From a virus (Duplodnaviria > Heunggongvirae > Uroviricota > Caudoviricetes), in IMG/VR virus record IMGVR_UViG_2651869785_000016: DNA of 5,001 nt; one strand, 5' to 3'. The notes under the pieces were generated by a model. It was given only the letters and a program-made list of their open reading frames with translations, was not told the DNA's origin and did no database searches. The position numbers were made by a program, and so were the translations under genes. This document shows, one piece after another, positions 1 through 5,001 of this stretch. Positions within the stretch are counted from its first letter, which is position 1; every line of letters begins with the position of its first letter.

Positions 1-130
1 GCTGATTGCCCCTCCGCACAGGGGGATTCACCATGCCAGTTTCTTTTAACAAACTCCCCGCAAACCAGACAACAGTCAACCGCCTGAATTGTGAGGTATT
101 TAAAAATTTCAACGGGTAACTGATACCCTG

Positions 131-283
131 CTAATCGCCTGATGCTTTCTTTTTCAGCAACGGGAAAGCAACAACCACCACACCCGCCACCAGCACACCG
201 TCAGCCAGCACTGACATTATCCGGCTGCTGAAGTCCACCATCACCACCAGAAACAGCAGGAGCGCAACCACAGCCAGACGCAT
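131..283 (-). CDS. Hypothetical small hydrophobic protein (50 aa), possible membrane peptide
   Basis: Own translation of the minus strand: ATG at 283-281, TAG at 133-131, product MRLAVVALLLFLVVMVDFSSRIMSVLADGVLVAGVVVVAFPLLKKKASGD. Two hydrophobic stretches and a basic C-terminus. Starts 8 nt after the TerB-like stop. No clear Shine-Dalgarno; below the size cutoff of the ORF track. Confidence 0.25.
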   Translation of the reverse strand: MRLAVVALLLFLVVMVDFSSRIMSVLADGVLVAGVVVVAFPLLKKKASGD

Positions 284-291
284 TTTTACCG

Positions 292-723
292 TCACAGATG
301 ATTCTCCAGACGAAGGCCCAGAACACCGGCAATCTCTTCCAGCACCTTGCGCTCTTCCGGCTCTATTTCGCCGTCTGCTTCGGCAATGGCCACCGCCACA
401 TCCAGCACGTCTTCCGCTTCACGCGTATCGTGTTTCACATCCTCGATCTCACGTAACGCCGCACGACGACCAATTTTAAAGTTCGTATCCAGCTGACCGA
501 TAATGGTTGCGCTAATCGCATTAATTTCTGACGTAAACGCGGACAAGGTGGGCTGGTTACGTAATACCTGTTCGATCTTCGCTTTCTCGGAAGCCTCACA
601 TTCACCATCGGCATAAGCCACCAGGTATGCAGCGTTAATCACTGCCTGTGCCAGATCGCGTTTTTCAAACTTTTTAATTTCCGCAGCCGCTCTGCGGGTT
701 TTCTTTTTGAAGATTCCAAGCAT
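292..723 (-). CDS. TerB-family (tellurite-resistance TerB-like) protein, 143 aa; prophage moron
   Basis: The track ORF 292..795 has an internal ATG at 723-721 (MLGIFKKK...) preceded by AAGGAA 8 nt upstream, so the start was trimmed to 723. The product has the two repeated A-x-A-D-G-x-x-x-x-E-E-K segments typical of TerB (AAYLVAYADGECEASEKAKI and AVAIAEADGEIEPEERKVL). Family assignment is from recalled TerB sequences, not a search. Confidence 0.7.
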   Translation of the reverse strand: MLGIFKKKTRRAAAEIKKFEKRDLAQAVINAAYLVAYADGECEASEKAKIEQVLRNQPTLSAFTSEINAISATIIGQLDTNFKIGRRAALREIEDVKHDTREAEDVLDVAVAIAEADGEIEPEERKVLEEIAGVLGLRLENHL

Positions 724-855
724 TGTGACGTTCCTTTGGGTGGGTGAGCCAACGCCCGGGAGCGATCTGCCCACAGAGAAAGTCACACTGACCACTCCGT
801 AAGCTCACCCCCGAAAGGCTCTGTGGTTGATATGCGCCGGGCGTGGCGCGGAGAC

Positions 856-879
856 AAAAAAGGCCCGCAAAAGCGAGCC
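856..879 (-). terminator. Intrinsic terminator downstream of the tRNA cluster (minus strand)
   Basis: Plus strand has A6 (856-861), then GGCCCGC (862-868), AAAA, GCGAGCC (873-879). On the minus-strand RNA this is a 7-bp GC-rich stem with one G-U pair, a UUUU loop and a U6 tail, about 15 nt after the last tRNA 3' end. Confidence 0.55.
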
Positions 880-893
880 GGGAAAAATAAGTC

Positions 894-970
894 TGGCGCG
901 TTGTACTGGATTCGAACCAGTGACCGGTTGCTTAGAAGGCAATTGCTCTGTCCGGCTGAGCTAACAACGC
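894..970 (-). tRNA. argO: tRNA-Arg, anticodon UCU (77 nt, CCA encoded)
   Basis: Reverse complement folds as a cloverleaf: acceptor GCGTTGT/ACAACGC, D-arm GCTC...GAGC, anticodon arm ATTGC-CTTCTAA-GCAAC, T-arm ACTGG-TTCGAAT-CCAGT, discriminator G, CCA. Symbol assigned by position in the recalled phage ileZ-argN-argO order. Confidence 0.85.
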
Positions 971-983
971 AGGGTACAGATAA

Positions 984-1060
984 TGGACCGCCATCGAGGA
1001 CTCGAACCCCGCGCAACCAGCTTCGAAGGCTGGCGCTCTTTCCTGATGAGCTAATGGCGG
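984..1060 (-). tRNA. argN: tRNA-Arg, anticodon UCG (77 nt, CCA encoded)
   Basis: Reverse complement: acceptor CCGCCAT/ATGGCGG, D-arm GCTC...GAGC, anticodon arm CCAGC-CTTCGAA-GCTGG, T-arm CGGGG-TTCGAGT-CCTCG, discriminator U, CCA. Symbol by position in the recalled phage trio. Confidence 0.85.
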
Positions 1061-1067
1061 TATGTAA

Positions 1068-1143
1068 TGGTGGCCCTTGCTGGATTTGAACCAGCGACCT
1101 GGCGATTATGAGTCGCTCGCTCTCACCACTGAGCCAAAGGGCC
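1068..1143 (-). tRNA. ileZ: tRNA with CAU anticodon (76 nt): tRNA-Ile2 (lysidine-type, AUA-reading) or tRNA-Met
   Basis: Reverse complement: acceptor GGCCCTT/AAGGGCC, D-arm GCTC...GAGC, anticodon arm AGCGA-CTCATAA-TCGCC, T-arm GCTGG-TTCAAAT-CCAGC, discriminator A, CCA. Ile versus Met cannot be decided from the anticodon alone; the ileZ symbol is by analogy with the phage trio. Confidence 0.8.
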
Positions 1144-1152
1144 GGGAGCCGC

Positions 1153-1181
1153 ATAATAACGACGCGTAATTAATTCTTCAA
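1153..1181 (-). promoter_or_regulatory. Candidate sigma70 promoter for the tRNA operon
   Basis: On the minus strand: -35 TTGAAG (1181-1176), 17-nt spacer, -10 TATTAT (1158-1153), about 9 nt before the first tRNA 5' end at 1143. Overlaps the 3' end of the methylase remnant. Motif match only. Confidence 0.35.
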
Positions 1182-1183
1182 TA

Positions 1184-1462
1184 TCATCCGTTCTGGCTGA
1201 CTAAATCCTGAACTTCCCTGACCGTCTGCTCAAAACGTTCAGTCTCCAGCTCAACACCAGTTGCACGACGTCCCAGCGCCATCGCTGCTTTGACTGTCGA
1301 ACCCGACCCCATGAAGAAATCTGCAACCAGGTCACCCGGACGACTGCTCGCGCTGATTATCTGCTGCAGCATTTCTGCCGGTTTTTCGCACGGATGTTTC
1401 CCGGGATAGAACTGCACCAGTTTATGCGTCCAGACATCGGTATACGGCACCTGCGCCGTCAC
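1184..1462 (-). pseudogene. Remnant of an N6-adenine/N4-cytosine DNA methyltransferase (PF01555-like, C-terminal half only)
   Basis: Product contains the HPxxKP-like motif (HPCEKP) and the AdoMet motif DFFMGSGST but no DPPY catalytic motif. The ORF begins at a GTG; the frame stays open upstream to 1543 with no ATG and runs through the terminator hairpin. The N-terminal half would have to lie where the AT-rich cassette now sits. Confidence 0.6.
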
Positions 1463-1520
1463 GCCAAAATACCGCCGCAGTCGGCATTCACAACCACCAG
1501 CGCATTTAACGTTCAGCCAT

Positions 1521-1545
1521 AAAAAAACCCGCTCGCGGCGGGTTT
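1521..1545 (-). terminator. Intrinsic terminator (minus strand) at the left edge of the AT-rich cassette
   Basis: Minus-strand RNA reads AAA-CCCGC-CGCGA-GCGGG followed by U7: a GC stem extendable by A-U pairs plus a long U tail. On the plus strand only three U follow the stem, so it is much weaker in that direction. Could be a tR'-like element or an insulator for the cassette; function not established. Confidence 0.55.
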
Positions 1546-1590
1546 AAGCTGTGTGGCGAAGTAACCACTCTTAACAGATTACAATGATTT

Positions 1591-1619
1591 TTGCGTACGC
1601 GTTAGCATTTTCGTAAAAT
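1591..1619 (+). promoter_or_regulatory. Candidate sigma70 promoter for the cassette operon
   Basis: -35 TTGCGT (1591-1596), 17-nt spacer, -10 TAAAAT (1614-1619), predicted start about 25 nt upstream of the ATG at 1651. Weak -35; motif-level call only. Confidence 0.3.
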
Positions 1620-1650
1620 ACATTACCTTGCAACCATTTCAGTATAAAAA

Positions 1651-3441
1651 ATGAGCACAGAATTAAAACTAAAGAAAATTATGGCATCGTCTAAAATTGA
1701 GCCATTTATTAGACATATTCGTTTTCCTTTTTTTAAAAACCTTGCAGAGGGTAGCAAGATTGATTTTGAGTATCCAATTACAGCATTAGTTGGTCAAAAC
1801 GGAACCAATAAAAGTTCTGTTTTAAGAGCCCTATTCGGTTCTCCAAACAACTATTCTCTGGGTAGCTTATGGTTTTCTACAGATGTAGATGAGATTAAAG
1901 ATGGTGGTCGTTCTAGATTTATTTATGGATATTATGACAAAGCTACTGATTCAATTGTTGAAGTAATTAAAACTCGAATCTCTAAAGAAAATGATCCTGA
2001 TTACTGGGAACCATCCAGACCATTAAAATCCGACAACATGGCTCCAATGCCTAGCACAAAAATCTCAACCAATCAACTAAGGACTAGGTGGAAAGCTATT
2101 GACAAAAATGTAATATATTTAGATTTCAGAGCAACTATCAGTGCATTTGATAAGTTCTTTTATCATTCTGATTTTCATACATACCCTAAGAAAGATTATC
2201 TTAGAAAACGCAGTCAGATGCTAAAAGACATTATAGATAACGATCTTAAAAAATATCAACCTCATAAAGGAAAAAAAGACAAGCTATTTGTTAACACTTT
2301 ATTAGAAAAAAGTAAGGTAGAGGCAATCAGCAAGATTTTAGGTCGCAAATACACAAGCATCCGCCTTATTGAACATAGCTTATTCACTAATGACAAAGCT
2401 CCCACAATTATTCTTCAATCAGAAAACTTAAAATATTCTGAAGCTTTCGCAGGCAGTGGGGAATTTGCTGTATCTATATTAGTGCATAAACTAATGGATA
2501 GCCCTGATGCATCTTTAATTCTGCTAGATGAACCTGAAGTATCACTTCACCCTTCTGCTCAATGTCAATTGATGGAATTTTTATCAGAACAAGCACTTAA
2601 AAAGAAACATCAAATTGTCATATCCACACATTCATCAACAATAGTAAAAGACTTGCCTAAAAATGCCATAAAATTATTCTGTCTGAATGATAAAATAGGA
2701 AAGGTTGATGTTCTTCAAAATGTCAGTCCAGAAGAATCTTTCTTTATTCTTGGTGAACGCATTGATAAAAGAACCGTTATTGTAGAAGATCGGTTAGCGA
2801 AGAGGTTTGTAGAAAAGGCGCTTAAAGCGGGTGGTGAAGCATTATTAAACTCCTTCGAAGTAAAACATGTTCCTGGAGGAGCGGGAAGTATTCTTCAAAC
2901 TTTGGCTGTGCCTTTATGTGTTGCCAATGTTAAAAACGTTATTTTCTTATTAGATGGTGACCAATCGAGAACTGATGATTATCCAACTTCTGATTCCATA
3001 CCAGAAAATCAAAACACAAACCTTCAAAACATCATAAAAGAAATAACCAATCAAGATATAAAATTTAGTTGTGATGGTTCTAATGGCTCATCAAATAACA
3101 ATCAAAAATACAAAATGCAAAGAAATTTTATCGATTTCATCCACGATAAAATTGCTTTTCTTCCTGTTTATACTCCTGAAGCATTTCTTATTGAGAATGT
3201 TCATGGTGATTATAAAGAATATAAAGATCAAATCCCCAAAAACATTCAAGATGCTAAAGAAATCACCAAAGAACTTTGTAAGTTAGACACAGGGTTGGAG
3301 AACGTTACCAGTGACGATATCTTTGAAACACAAATCAGAATTCTTAATAAAATACCAAATAATCATGAAGTGTTAACAAAAACTCGAGAGTTGCTGCAAA
3401 TCTTTTTAGATAATGATACTATCAGACCAAGAGTGAGGTAG
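1651..3441 (+). CDS. ABC-type ATPase (AAA_21/AAA_15-like) fused to a C-terminal Toprim-like nuclease domain; OLD-family/PARIS-like defence protein, 596 aa
   Basis: Long ORF in AT-rich DNA. P-loop GQNGTNKSS (res 48-56), ABC-signature-like AGSGEFAVSIL, Walker B with D-loop LILLDEPEVSLHP (D293/E294), H-loop ISTHS (H327). C-terminal Toprim hallmarks: acidic TVIVEDR (E379) and FLLDGDQS (D435/D437) about 56 residues later. No Shine-Dalgarno at 1651; ATG at 1681 (M11) is an alternative start. Domain calls are by motif recognition, not a search. Confidence 0.8.
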   Translation: MSTELKLKKIMASSKIEPFIRHIRFPFFKNLAEGSKIDFEYPITALVGQNGTNKSSVLRALFGSPNNYSLGSLWFSTDVDEIKDGGRSRFIYGYYDKATDSIVEVIKTRISKENDPDYWEPSRPLKSDNMAPMPSTKISTNQLRTRWKAIDKNVIYLDFRATISAFDKFFYHSDFHTYPKKDYLRKRSQMLKDIIDNDLKKYQPHKGKKDKLFVNTLLEKSKVEAISKILGRKYTSIRLIEHSLFTNDKAPTIILQSENLKYSEAFAGSGEFAVSILVHKLMDSPDASLILLDEPEVSLHPSAQCQLMEFLSEQALKKKHQIVISTHSSTIVKDLPKNAIKLFCLNDKIGKVDVLQNVSPEESFFILGERIDKRTVIVEDRLAKRFVEKALKAGGEALLNSFEVKHVPGGAGSILQTLAVPLCVANVKNVIFLLDGDQSRTDDYPTSDSIPENQNTNLQNIIKEITNQDIKFSCDGSNGSSNNNQKYKMQRNFIDFIHDKIAFLPVYTPEAFLIENVHGDYKEYKDQIPKNIQDAKEITKELCKLDTGLENVTSDDIFETQIRILNKIPNNHEVLTKTRELLQIFLDNDTIRPRVR

Positions 3442-3444
3442 ATA

Positions 3445-4485
3445 ATGGCTAAAAAGATACACGTTTACGATTTCTTTTCCGGCTGCGGCGGAACCAGTGT
3501 AGGCCTAAAAGCGGTGGGAATGGAAATTATTTTCGGTTTAGATATTGATCTAGATTCCGCTAACACCTTTAAAATGAATAATCCATTTGCACATTTTATC
3601 AATGGTGATATCAAAGATACACACGTTGAGGAAATTAAGCATCTGGTTTGTGCGTCAACACAAAGCAAAGCTCTAACCCTATTTTGTGGTTGTGCTCCAT
3701 GTCAACCATTCTCGAAACAAAATAAAATACGGAACGAGGATGATCCGAGAAAAGATCTGCTTACTGAGTTTGCACGGTTTGTCTCTTATTATACGCCAGA
3801 CTTTGTACTGGTAGAGAATGTACCAGGAATCCAAAATGTCGATATTAACAATGGAAATTTCCAGAAATTTCTTGAGGTTTTAGCACATCATCACTACAAC
3901 GTTGATTTTGGTGTGATTCCTGCGTTGTGGTTCGGGGTTCCTCAAACACGTGAACGTTTTGTTTTACTGGCGTCAAAACACACGAATATTAAGCTTCCAT
4001 CACAAACTCATGATGGGTTAAAAACTCCGTATGCAACTGTCAGAGACTGGATCGGCGGATTACCTCCTATTGCTGCCGGTGAAACTCATAAAGATGTTAT
4101 GGATCATACAGCAGCCAAACTATCTGATCTAAATATTAAACGTATTAAAGCGACTCCTGAGGGAAAAGGTAGAGAATCTTGGCCTGAAGAACTTATACTA
4201 AAATGCCATAAAAAATATAAAGGGCATACTGATGTTTATGGACGGCTTTCTTGGGACAAACCAGCAAGTGGATTAACAACTAGATGTATAAGCTATTCGA
4301 ATGGACGTTTCGGACATCCAGAGCAAGATAGGGCTATTTCTGTTAGAGAGGCTGCGTTATTACAGACTTTCCCATTAGACTATTCCTTCACAGGCTCTTT
4401 AGTCTCGAAAGCCAAACAGATAGGGAATGCAGTCCCTCCCAAGATGGCTGAAGCTCTTGGAAGGGCTATCATCGCATCACTTTAA
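3445..4485 (+). CDS. DNA (cytosine-5)-methyltransferase, Dcm/M.HhaI-like, 346 aa
   Basis: Canonical m5C-MTase motifs in standard order: I DFFSGCGG (res 9-16), IV GCAPCQPFS with catalytic Cys86, VI ENV (124-126), VIII QTRERF (167-172), variable target-recognition region, IX REAALLQTFPLDY (301-313), X GNAVPP (327-332). GAGG Shine-Dalgarno 6 nt upstream, inside the 3' end of the upstream gene; 3-nt intergenic gap indicates translational coupling. Confidence 0.9.
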   Translation: MAKKIHVYDFFSGCGGTSVGLKAVGMEIIFGLDIDLDSANTFKMNNPFAHFINGDIKDTHVEEIKHLVCASTQSKALTLFCGCAPCQPFSKQNKIRNEDDPRKDLLTEFARFVSYYTPDFVLVENVPGIQNVDINNGNFQKFLEVLAHHHYNVDFGVIPALWFGVPQTRERFVLLASKHTNIKLPSQTHDGLKTPYATVRDWIGGLPPIAAGETHKDVMDHTAAKLSDLNIKRIKATPEGKGRESWPEELILKCHKKYKGHTDVYGRLSWDKPASGLTTRCISYSNGRFGHPEQDRAISVREAALLQTFPLDYSFTGSLVSKAKQIGNAVPPKMAEALGRAIIASL

Positions 4486-4487
4486 AA

Positions 4488-4509
4488 GCGGAGCCCTAGA
4501 GGGCTTCGC
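4488..4509. terminator. Convergent hairpin between the MTase and Q 3' ends; plausible terminator mainly for minus-strand (Q) transcripts
   Basis: GCGGAGCCC-TAGA-GGGCTTCGC: 9-bp stem with one G-U pair and a 4-nt loop, starting 3 nt after the MTase stop and containing the Q stop codon (4496-4498). The minus-strand RNA has UUUU immediately after the stem; the plus-strand RNA has an A-rich tail, so it is weak in that direction. Confidence 0.4.
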
Positions 4510-4852
4510 CTAACAATAATAGAATACCTGATATAAACCCTATAGCTCCCTGAAGCTCTTTTCTAATTGCTCCATCAGAGCATTTTCTTTTCTTAGCAAT
4601 GGTGCGTAATGAGATACCAATCACAAAATGAGCAATGATCAGCTCATATTCTTCTGGTTTATACTTCCGCAGGCGGGCGACACAGCCATCAATCATGATG
4701 CCTTCATCATCATCGCACTGAATCCGGGACTTTCTGCCATGAGGTAAAAGCCCCTTGAAGCCAGCGGCTACCGGTTGCCAATCCACACCACTGTTCTCTG
4801 CCGCAGCCCACGCTCCCCAACGGTCTAATACTTCATACATATCACACATCAA
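4496..4852 (-). CDS. Q: Phage late-gene antitermination protein Q (QuuD-like family), 118 aa
   Basis: Product has the LDRWGAWAA...AAGFKGL...KSRIQCDDDE...GCVARL...CSDGAIRKELQ pattern I recall from E. coli prophage Q/QuuD antiterminators. GGAG Shine-Dalgarno about 8 nt upstream of the ATG. The C-terminus (...GILLLLGEAL) ends earlier than I recall for QuuD and abuts the cassette junction. Confidence 0.75.
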   Translation of the reverse strand: MMCDMYEVLDRWGAWAAAENSGVDWQPVAAGFKGLLPHGRKSRIQCDDDEGIMIDGCVARLRKYKPEEYELIIAHFVIGISLRTIAKKRKCSDGAIRKELQGAIGFISGILLLLGEAL

Positions 4853-4866
4853 CTTTCTCCACCAAA

Positions 4867-5001
4867 TCAGGCTAGCACACCAATTGCCAACGCACGGTCG
4901 ATAAAACGAAATATCAGCTCCAGCTGGGAGCCATACTTCTCTTCGAATGCCACATTATCCGCATGCAGCTCGTCGTGATGCTTTCTGCACAAAGGCAACA
5001 C
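4867..5001 (-). CDS. C-terminal fragment (44 codons) of an upstream prophage gene; possible HNH/His-Me-finger-like motif
   Basis: Own translation of the minus strand entering at the window edge: VLPLCRKHHDELHADNVAFEEKYGSQLELIFRFIDRALAIGVLA, stop TGA at 4869-4867, 14 nt upstream of Q. LCRKHH...H resembles the C-terminal half of HNH motifs. The gene continues beyond the window. Confidence 0.45.
   Translation of the reverse strand: MLPLCRKHHDELHADNVAFEEKYGSQLELIFRFIDRALAIGVLA

Follow-up and report, generated by a model that had tools for sequence, protein, structure and literature searches.

Do the tRNA genes carried by a prophage serve the rare-codon-rich genes that happen to lie beside them? 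The question is raised by a stretch of 5,001 bases (the window, a name used here for that whole stretch), which corresponds to positions 2,170,870-2,175,870, reverse strand, of Escherichia coli strain G1/2 (NZ_CP060083.1), with a sole mismatch at window position 1040, and which, according to its RefSeq context, belongs to the late-regulatory part of an Stx-phage-like lambdoid prophage. Its minus strand carries three tRNA genes (the trio), with the anticodons UCU, UCG and CAU, and its plus strand two AT-rich genes (the cassette), encoding a predicted ATPase-TOPRIM nuclease and a DNA cytosine-5 methyltransferase. An earlier note on this DNA had observed that the cassette is full of AGA, AGG and ATA codons and had suggested that the neighboring tRNAs could support the expression of this AT-rich module. 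If this were true, the prophage would bring along a translation aid of its own for the foreign defence genes, and the case would be informative about how E. coli comes to make use of AT-rich immune cargo. In general terms, phage tRNAs have been proposed to compensate for differences in codon usage between phage and host (PMC4032129; PMC3636060).

The answer to which the analysis leads is that the pairing is probably coincidental, with standard tRNAs of prophages of the Shiga toxin (Stx) type standing beside an AT-rich defence module that landed there by mosaic recombination. As for the earlier suggestion, the match between codons and anticodons is real, but a functional coupling is not supported, in view of identical cassettes that occur without the tRNAs, of a rare-codon load that stays at the level given by base composition, and of a homology junction at position 1524 of the window.

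Rare-codon load of the cassette genes

Exact in-frame counting gives 12 AGA, 4 AGG and 12 ATA codons in the 596-codon nuclease gene (47 per 1000) and 5 AGA, 2 AGG and 5 ATA codons in the 346-codon methyltransferase gene (35 per 1000), so that the estimates of the earlier note, at least a dozen each of AGA/AGG (16 by exact count) and ATA (12) in the first gene and further ones in the second, are borne out. The comparison with host codon usage, which the note had named as a check, is based on 83 genes sampled from the annotated chromosome of G1/2 (26,622 codons), in which AGA, AGG and ATA occur at 1.43, 0.94 and 3.91 per 1000, respectively (sum 6.3; per-gene median of the sum 4.5). At these rates a gene of 596 codons is expected to contain 0.85 AGA, 0.56 AGG and 2.33 ATA codons, and the Poisson tails for the numbers found are 1e-10, 3e-3 and 6e-6 (1e-10 to 4e-2 across both cassette genes). 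Within the host sample the nuclease gene stands at the 99th percentile and the methyltransferase gene at the 98th, and the rare-codon excess over the host is far beyond chance.

The two genes are also distinguished by their guanine-cytosine (GC) content, which is 0.33 for the nuclease gene and 0.40 for the methyltransferase gene vs. about 0.52 in the flanks, and their codon counts were compared with a neutral model in which synonymous codons are drawn according to the base composition at the four-fold third positions of the gene concerned. Neither cassette gene shows a rare-codon excess over this expectation: the nuclease gene has 12 AGA codons vs. 11.1 expected, 4 AGG vs. 2.7 and 12 ATA vs. 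19.6, and the methyltransferase gene 5 AGA vs. 5.0, 2 AGG vs. 2.6 and 5 ATA vs. 8.4, ATA being under expectation in both. Host genes of low GC content without a tRNA neighbor reach comparable values, with 60.7 rare codons per 1000 in yibA (GC 0.34) and 32.7 in yibG (GC 0.32). Since the composition model and the low-GC host genes give similar loads, the load of the cassette is a by-product of its low GC content, and its rare-codon richness is the ordinary signature of low-GC acquired DNA.

As to the arrangement of these codons, no two of them are adjacent in either cassette gene, and just one falls within the first 25 codons of each. The candidate role of the rare codons as positionally conserved regulatory features was rejected, 12 of them being shared between two cassette variants vs. 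9.3 expected. These observations bear on the possibility that the rare codons act as a brake, holding a potentially toxic nuclease at a low level in the lysogen until Q-dependent read-through into the tRNA genes releases it on induction. Such a circuit would suit the position of the tRNAs, which are on the late-operon strand and 3' of the terminator block, and the related single-gene system HEC-04 has been reported to be apparently toxic when induced (bioRxiv 10.1101/2024.01.29.577857). It is nonetheless highly unlikely, given codons that are neither conserved in position nor more frequent than composition predicts, a cassette that is present in prophages without tRNAs (see below), and tRNA genes that appear to have their own promoter.

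The rest of the prophage is itself enriched in codons that the trio reads. In the backbone without the cassette, AGA reaches 9.4 per 1000 vs. 1.4 in the host and AGG 4.8 vs. 0.9, that is about 6.6-fold and 5-fold, whereas ATA (6.2 vs. 3.9) and CGA plus CGG (15 vs. 9) are raised only about 1.6-fold. Each of the two cassette genes contains 3 CGA/CGG codons, and the tRNA with the UCG anticodon, which the earlier note had passed over, has therefore almost nothing to read in the cassette. In toxin-encoding phages, stx2A carries AGA, AGG and ATA at 72 per 1000, and the background given in the earlier note on phage tRNAs and stx is accurate, the tRNAs of the window being of the ileZ, argN and argO kind found in Stx phages.

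Distribution of the cassette and the trio

Among 5,426 complete E. coli genomes, 8 contain the cassette (99.7% identity or more) and 2,288 the trio (query of 326 nt, coverage at least 80%), often in more than one copy, G1/2 itself having four; the trio is thus some 300 times more widespread than the cassette. The cassette adjoins the tRNAs in half of its eight genomes (G1/2, G6/7, G8 and DETEC-S792), the first three of which are sister isolates, and a regular co-occurrence of trio and cassette, which the coupling would lead one to expect, is not seen.

The other four genomes (C4, LR-03, A21 and DLI.6n) have only window positions 1524-5001 in common with this locus. In C4 and LR-03 the loci read Q, cassette, lambda-type holin, with identical cassette proteins (WP_231256136.1 and WP_047645442.1); in the 19 kb that surround the C4 cassette no tRNA is detected by ARAGORN, and the annotation of the 3-kb flanks on either side of the LR-03 cassette lists none. 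With megablast the whole window is matched at one place only in LR-03 and in A21, because of which the trio appears to be absent from these two genomes altogether. A diverged form of the cassette, at about 71-74% DNA identity, is present in 10 further E. coli genomes, and the one such locus inspected (about 71% identity) reads Q, cassette, holin, without a tRNA, its two genes having 62.5 and 40.7 rare codons per 1000. In the vicinity of the homologues from Arsenophonus, Yersinia and Oceanospirillum there is likewise no Arg or Ile tRNA, only tRNA-Gly/Thr being found in Yersinia. Cassettes without tRNAs act as natural deletion experiments, and the tRNAs would therefore be dispensable for the cassette staying intact.

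The boundary between the two elements can be placed within the conserved block 3' of Q that ends in an intrinsic terminator (Table 1). The homology between prophages of the G1/2 type and those of the C4 type starts at position 1524, inside this block, and the prophage of UPEC-245U, which lacks the cassette, shares window positions 1-1611 and represents the empty site. Because of these two limits the cassette is seen to travel with the DUF968-Q module and the tRNAs with the downstream module, and, judged from the extent of homology, a mosaic junction at 1524 separates them. The block is common to the window, C4, WP4 and UPEC-245U, and is presumed to be the late-promoter leader and tR', although the late promoter pR' was not recognised on the minus strand of 1524-1650 either by consensus scan or by reading by eye. 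The wider interval 1524-1650 is conserved beside different Q alleles.

In the prophages of the O121 strain 2014C-4423 and of Stx2a_1447 the same site is filled by unrelated AT-rich two-gene cassettes, which makes it a general cargo hotspot. The gap between the Q stop and the terminator block is recurrently occupied in lambdoid prophages of several genera, and the cassettes are always on the strand opposite to Q.

Set against this evidence, the suggestion that the trio is functionally coupled to the cassette, supplying AGA, AGG and AUA tRNAs for its translation and being kept with it for that reason, appears improbable. It can draw on the real codon-anticodon match, with 47 and 35 rare codons per 1000, on tRNAs that look intact and are preceded by a conserved promoter-like element, and on the presence of both elements on one mobile element, co-inherited in this lineage. 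The cassette with identical proteins is, however, intact in prophages and genomes without the trio, its variants and distant homologues lack Arg and Ile tRNAs, and the trio is far the commoner of the two, with a mosaic junction in between; moreover, the codon load equals the expectation from composition, without tandem or 5'-clustered rare codons, and there is no demand for the UCG tRNA. Nor would coupling need adjacency, the tRNA being a trans-acting RNA of which G1/2 already has four sets. As the tRNAs act in trans and would be co-inherited from wherever in the prophage they lay, adjacency confers no mechanistic advantage; the trio and the cassette are on opposite strands, in different transcription units, and the opposite orientation means that the cassette must have its own promoter.

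In the preferred reading, two unrelated modules meet here. The ileZ-argN-argO trio is a conserved element of the prophage backbone, present in thousands of prophages without the cassette and provided with its own promoter-like element and terminator-like hairpin; its products would join the tRNA pool of the cell, act in trans, and fit the raised AGA/AGG use of the prophage or, in toxin phages, the codons of stx2A. The second module is a horizontally acquired, AT-rich, two-gene defence cassette, placed on the opposite strand in the hotspot between the Q stop and the terminator block, its abundance of AGA, AGG and ATA being a passive outcome of low GC content. Their adjacency probably arose by mosaic recombination at the terminator block, and any help of the tRNAs to cassette translation would be incidental and dispensable, although a modest incidental benefit of the trio to the cassette may exist.

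Some points weigh against coincidence. The conserved promoter-like element 5' of the tRNAs would permit their expression in the lysogen, where they could add decoding capacity for the 40 AGA, AGG and ATA codons of the cassette; that LR-03 and A21 lack the trio is read from megablast place counts rather than from scanning the whole genomes for tRNAs; the host baseline comes from 83 sampled genes; and two different AT-rich cassettes, that of the window and that of the O121/Stx2a type, adjoin the trio. This last finding leaves room for a landing-pad effect, in which the trio would raise AGA/AGG/AUA decoding in the lysogen and so make AT-rich defence cargo at the Q-proximal hotspot cheaper and better retained or expressed; it is somewhat less likely still than a coupling of trio and cassette. 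As a related possibility, Q-dependent read-through into the tRNAs may boost the cassette on induction. With coincidence as the preferred reading, the main value of the case is a negative one: where AT-rich cargo is rich in rare codons, base composition should be the first explanation to test, and a tRNA that acts in trans gives no evidence of coupling by lying next door.

Components of the locus

The features of the locus are collected in Table 1. Along the minus strand, DUF968 and Q are followed by the terminator block, the N6-adenine methyltransferase remnant, the three tRNAs, a terminator-like hairpin, TerB and DUF3927, and beyond the window by a SASA-type esterase and then by the lysis genes.

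Table 1. Coordinates of the features discussed, in window positions unless a locus label (L number) is given.
Feature	Position	Strand	Evidence and remarks
TerB-family protein (TciA-like)	292..723	-	Pfam TerB 9e-16; RefSeq CDS; occupies the stx position of Stx phages
Terminator-like hairpin with T-run, directly 3' of the third tRNA	862..879	-	Consensus scan; putative
tRNA-Arg (UCU), argO-type; decodes AGA, weakly AGG	894..970	-	ARAGORN; Rfam tRNA 65.7 bits; 76/77 with argO of Stx2a_1447
tRNA-Arg (UCG), argN-type; decodes CGA/CGG	984..1060	-	ARAGORN; Rfam 55.7 bits; 72/77 with argN of Stx2a_1447
tRNA (CAU), Ile2 (ileX/ileZ) type	1068..1143	-	ARAGORN; Rfam 71.2 bits; 75/76 with ileZ of Stx2a_1447
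Promoter-like element, TTGAAG, 17 nt, TATTAT	1153..1181	-	Consensus scan; just 5' of the tRNA cluster
N6-adenine DNA methyltransferase remnant, N-terminus missing, pseudogene	1184..1480	-	Pfam N6_N4_Mtase, positions 137-220 of 221 only; RefSeq incomplete
Conserved block 3' of Q with an intrinsic terminator at its end (hairpin 1545-1525)	1524..1612	-	Terminator scan
596-aa ABC-type ATPase with TOPRIM nuclease domain (OLD/GajA/HEC-04-like)	1651..3441	+	Pfam AAA_15/AAA_21
346-aa DNA cytosine-5 methyltransferase	3445..4485	+	Pfam DNA_methylase, full length, 3e-59; PADLOC MTase_II 7e-91
Late-gene antiterminator Q	4496..4852	-	Pfam Phage_antitermQ 9e-44; RefSeq
Hotspot contents, window	1612-4495
Hotspot contents, O121 strain 2014C-4423	L008 3286-4747
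Hotspot contents, other loci	L013 3708-5271; L009 5956-8795; L010 4001-6906; L012 4001-6840

The three tRNA genes, spanning 894-1143, are recognised by both ARAGORN and Rfam, all well over the Rfam threshold, and the match of the UCU and CAU anticodons to the AGA, AGG and ATA codons, pointed out in the earlier note, is real. The CAU tRNA is annotated in RefSeq as tRNA-Ile and has 88% identity to ileX of E. coli K-12, with an identical anticodon stem-loop (positions 28-42) and identical C4-G69 and C5-G68 acceptor pairs. The anticodon arm and these acceptor pairs are the determinants recognised by TilS, and the CAU tRNA would decode AUA once lysidine-modified. In the gene for tRNA-Arg(UCG), the sole mismatch with G1/2 (T in the window, A in G1/2, at position 1040) falls in the D-loop. 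From the prophage of the O121 strain 2014C-4423 (L008 1336-1568) the UCG tRNA has been lost, the CAU and UCU genes alone remaining; the trio is thus not always complete.

Both hexamers of the promoter-like element 5' of the trio are kept in four diverged prophages, while the bases around them vary, and a paper on O157:H7 names a "pS tRNA promoter" in this interval (PMC2858043). The element is therefore a candidate promoter. Since the cluster is bracketed by this element and by the terminator-like hairpin, a separate tRNA transcription unit within the late operon is suggested.

As regards the cassette proteins, the best PADLOC matches of the 596-aa protein are HEC-04 (1.9e-36, covering profile positions 155-386 of 494 only) and then ATPase-Toprim_I-B (1e-24), and its ATPase part matches AriA of PARIS (3e-16); it has no Pfam TOPRIM match, and NCBIfam gives only sub-threshold ATPase matches. 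Among 19 homologues the invariant residues of the ATPase comprise Walker A (G48-S56), D293/E294 (Walker B and D-loop) and H327 (H-loop), and those of a TOPRIM-like signature comprise E379 and D435-G-D437. The top fold matches of its AlphaFold2 model (pLDDT 82.5) are, over the full length, the OLD nuclease 6p74 (E 4.7e-13) and GajA. The methyltransferase gene begins 3 bp past the nuclease stop, and its product has Dnmt1, M.HaeIII and M.HhaI as relatives in the Protein Data Bank. At 46-100% identity, nuclease and methyltransferase are kept as neighbors in E. coli, Yersinia, Arsenophonus and Oceanospirillum; the Yersinia and Arsenophonus pairs also lie between Q and the lysis genes, the Oceanospirillum pair is in a non-phage chromosomal context, and in each case the pair is 9-15 GC points under its flanks. 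Most likely, the cassette is a restriction-modification-like pair, in which the methyltransferase would mark self DNA and the ATP-dependent nuclease would attack unmarked DNA. When the nuclease was compared by tblastn with 50,697 phage records, no close relative appeared, the best match having 29% identity over part of the protein, and a nucleotide search matched the backbone only, placing the cassette in no sequenced phage isolate.

Phage tRNAs can also act as anti-defence, and the trio might accordingly replace host tRNAs cut by anticodon nucleases, possibly including the neighboring TOPRIM nuclease. The ATPase-TOPRIM architecture does belong to a known defence family, and the AriA match of the ATPase part agrees with such a role; but the constant partner of the nuclease is a methyltransferase acting on DNA cytosine (m5C), which points to a DNA target, the best fold matches, OLD and GajA, are DNA nucleases, the anticodons of the trio fit the codon bias of the phage, and trio and cassette are not co-distributed. 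Of all the readings considered this is the least likely, and even taken jointly with a rare-codon brake on the nuclease it would have little probability.

Q and the methyltransferase gene are convergent, with stop codons 10 bp apart, and cassette transcription may read antisense into Q. No terminator-like hairpin is present between the two stops (4485-4496). The N6-adenine methyltransferase is whole (352 codons) in the O121 and Stx2a prophages. Cassette insertion as the cause of its truncation in the window was ruled out, because the cassette-less, empty-site prophage of UPEC-245U (L003 6203-6490) has the identical truncation. At the edge of the window (1-65, minus strand) there is a match to the Rfam small RNA family STnc100 (48.9 bits; gathering score 47), interrupted by the window edge.

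Comparison with known systems

The components of the locus are of already known kinds, and the trio has long been known in phages of the Stx type. Among host genes, argU of E. coli has the same anticodon loop as the UCU tRNA, the body of which is well diverged from argU, and with respect to both ileX and argU the window tRNAs are distinct, phage-borne genes. The ileZ-argN-argO cluster of 933W, VT2-Sakai and Stx2a_1447 (gene names from AP012536, Stx2a_1447) has the same three anticodons, CAU, UCG and UCU, in the same order and on the same late-operon strand, and is found in the same place, 3' of Q and of the N6-methyltransferase and 5' of the stx/TerB slot and of the esterase and holin genes. 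By these likenesses the tRNAs of the window can be identified with the ileZ-argN-argO trio known from lambdoid phages of the Stx type. The arrangement of the window matches that of Stx-converting phages such as Stx2a_1447, except that the stx slot is filled by TerB/DUF3927, TerB being comparable to tciA of phage JLK-2012; it differs further by having a remnant of the N6-methyltransferase, and the defence cassette between Q and the terminator block.

As in phages whose tRNAs are thought to compensate for codon usage (PMC4032129), the trio decodes codons that are over-used by the prophage backbone, AGA and AGG. In six lambdoid phages with 2-3 tRNA genes, five of them with this trio, however, codon adaptation was found to be neither better nor worse than in tRNA-less relatives (PMC4631060). 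Within the literature searched there was nothing specific on ileZ/argN/argO or on rare-codon roles of Stx-phage tRNAs. The idea that the trio supports stx is met in secondary citations.

Two by-products of the analysis may be worth separate study, namely the strand-inverted hotspot between Q and the terminator block and the conserved association of an m5C methyltransferase with a nuclease of the OLD type. In OLD, GajA of Gabija, and HEC-04/IbfA an ABC-type ATPase likewise precedes a TOPRIM domain in which an E and a DxD motif are conserved, and in HEC-04 the mutated residues E319 and D375 are spaced by 56, which equals the E-to-D spacing of the window nuclease. For HEC-04 and IbfA there is experimental support as defences of this ATPase-TOPRIM architecture consisting of one gene, and GajA is partnered by the helicase GajB, whereas a nuclease of the window type is always followed by an m5C methyltransferase. 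In view of the single-gene description of HEC-04 and IbfA, the pairing may be an undescribed, restriction-like variant. As in type II restriction-modification systems that have a Dcm-type methyltransferase, the gene for a full-length m5C methyltransferase is closely linked in the cassette to that for a nuclease, but its nuclease is of the ATP-binding OLD type, unlike the classical type II endonuclease fold.

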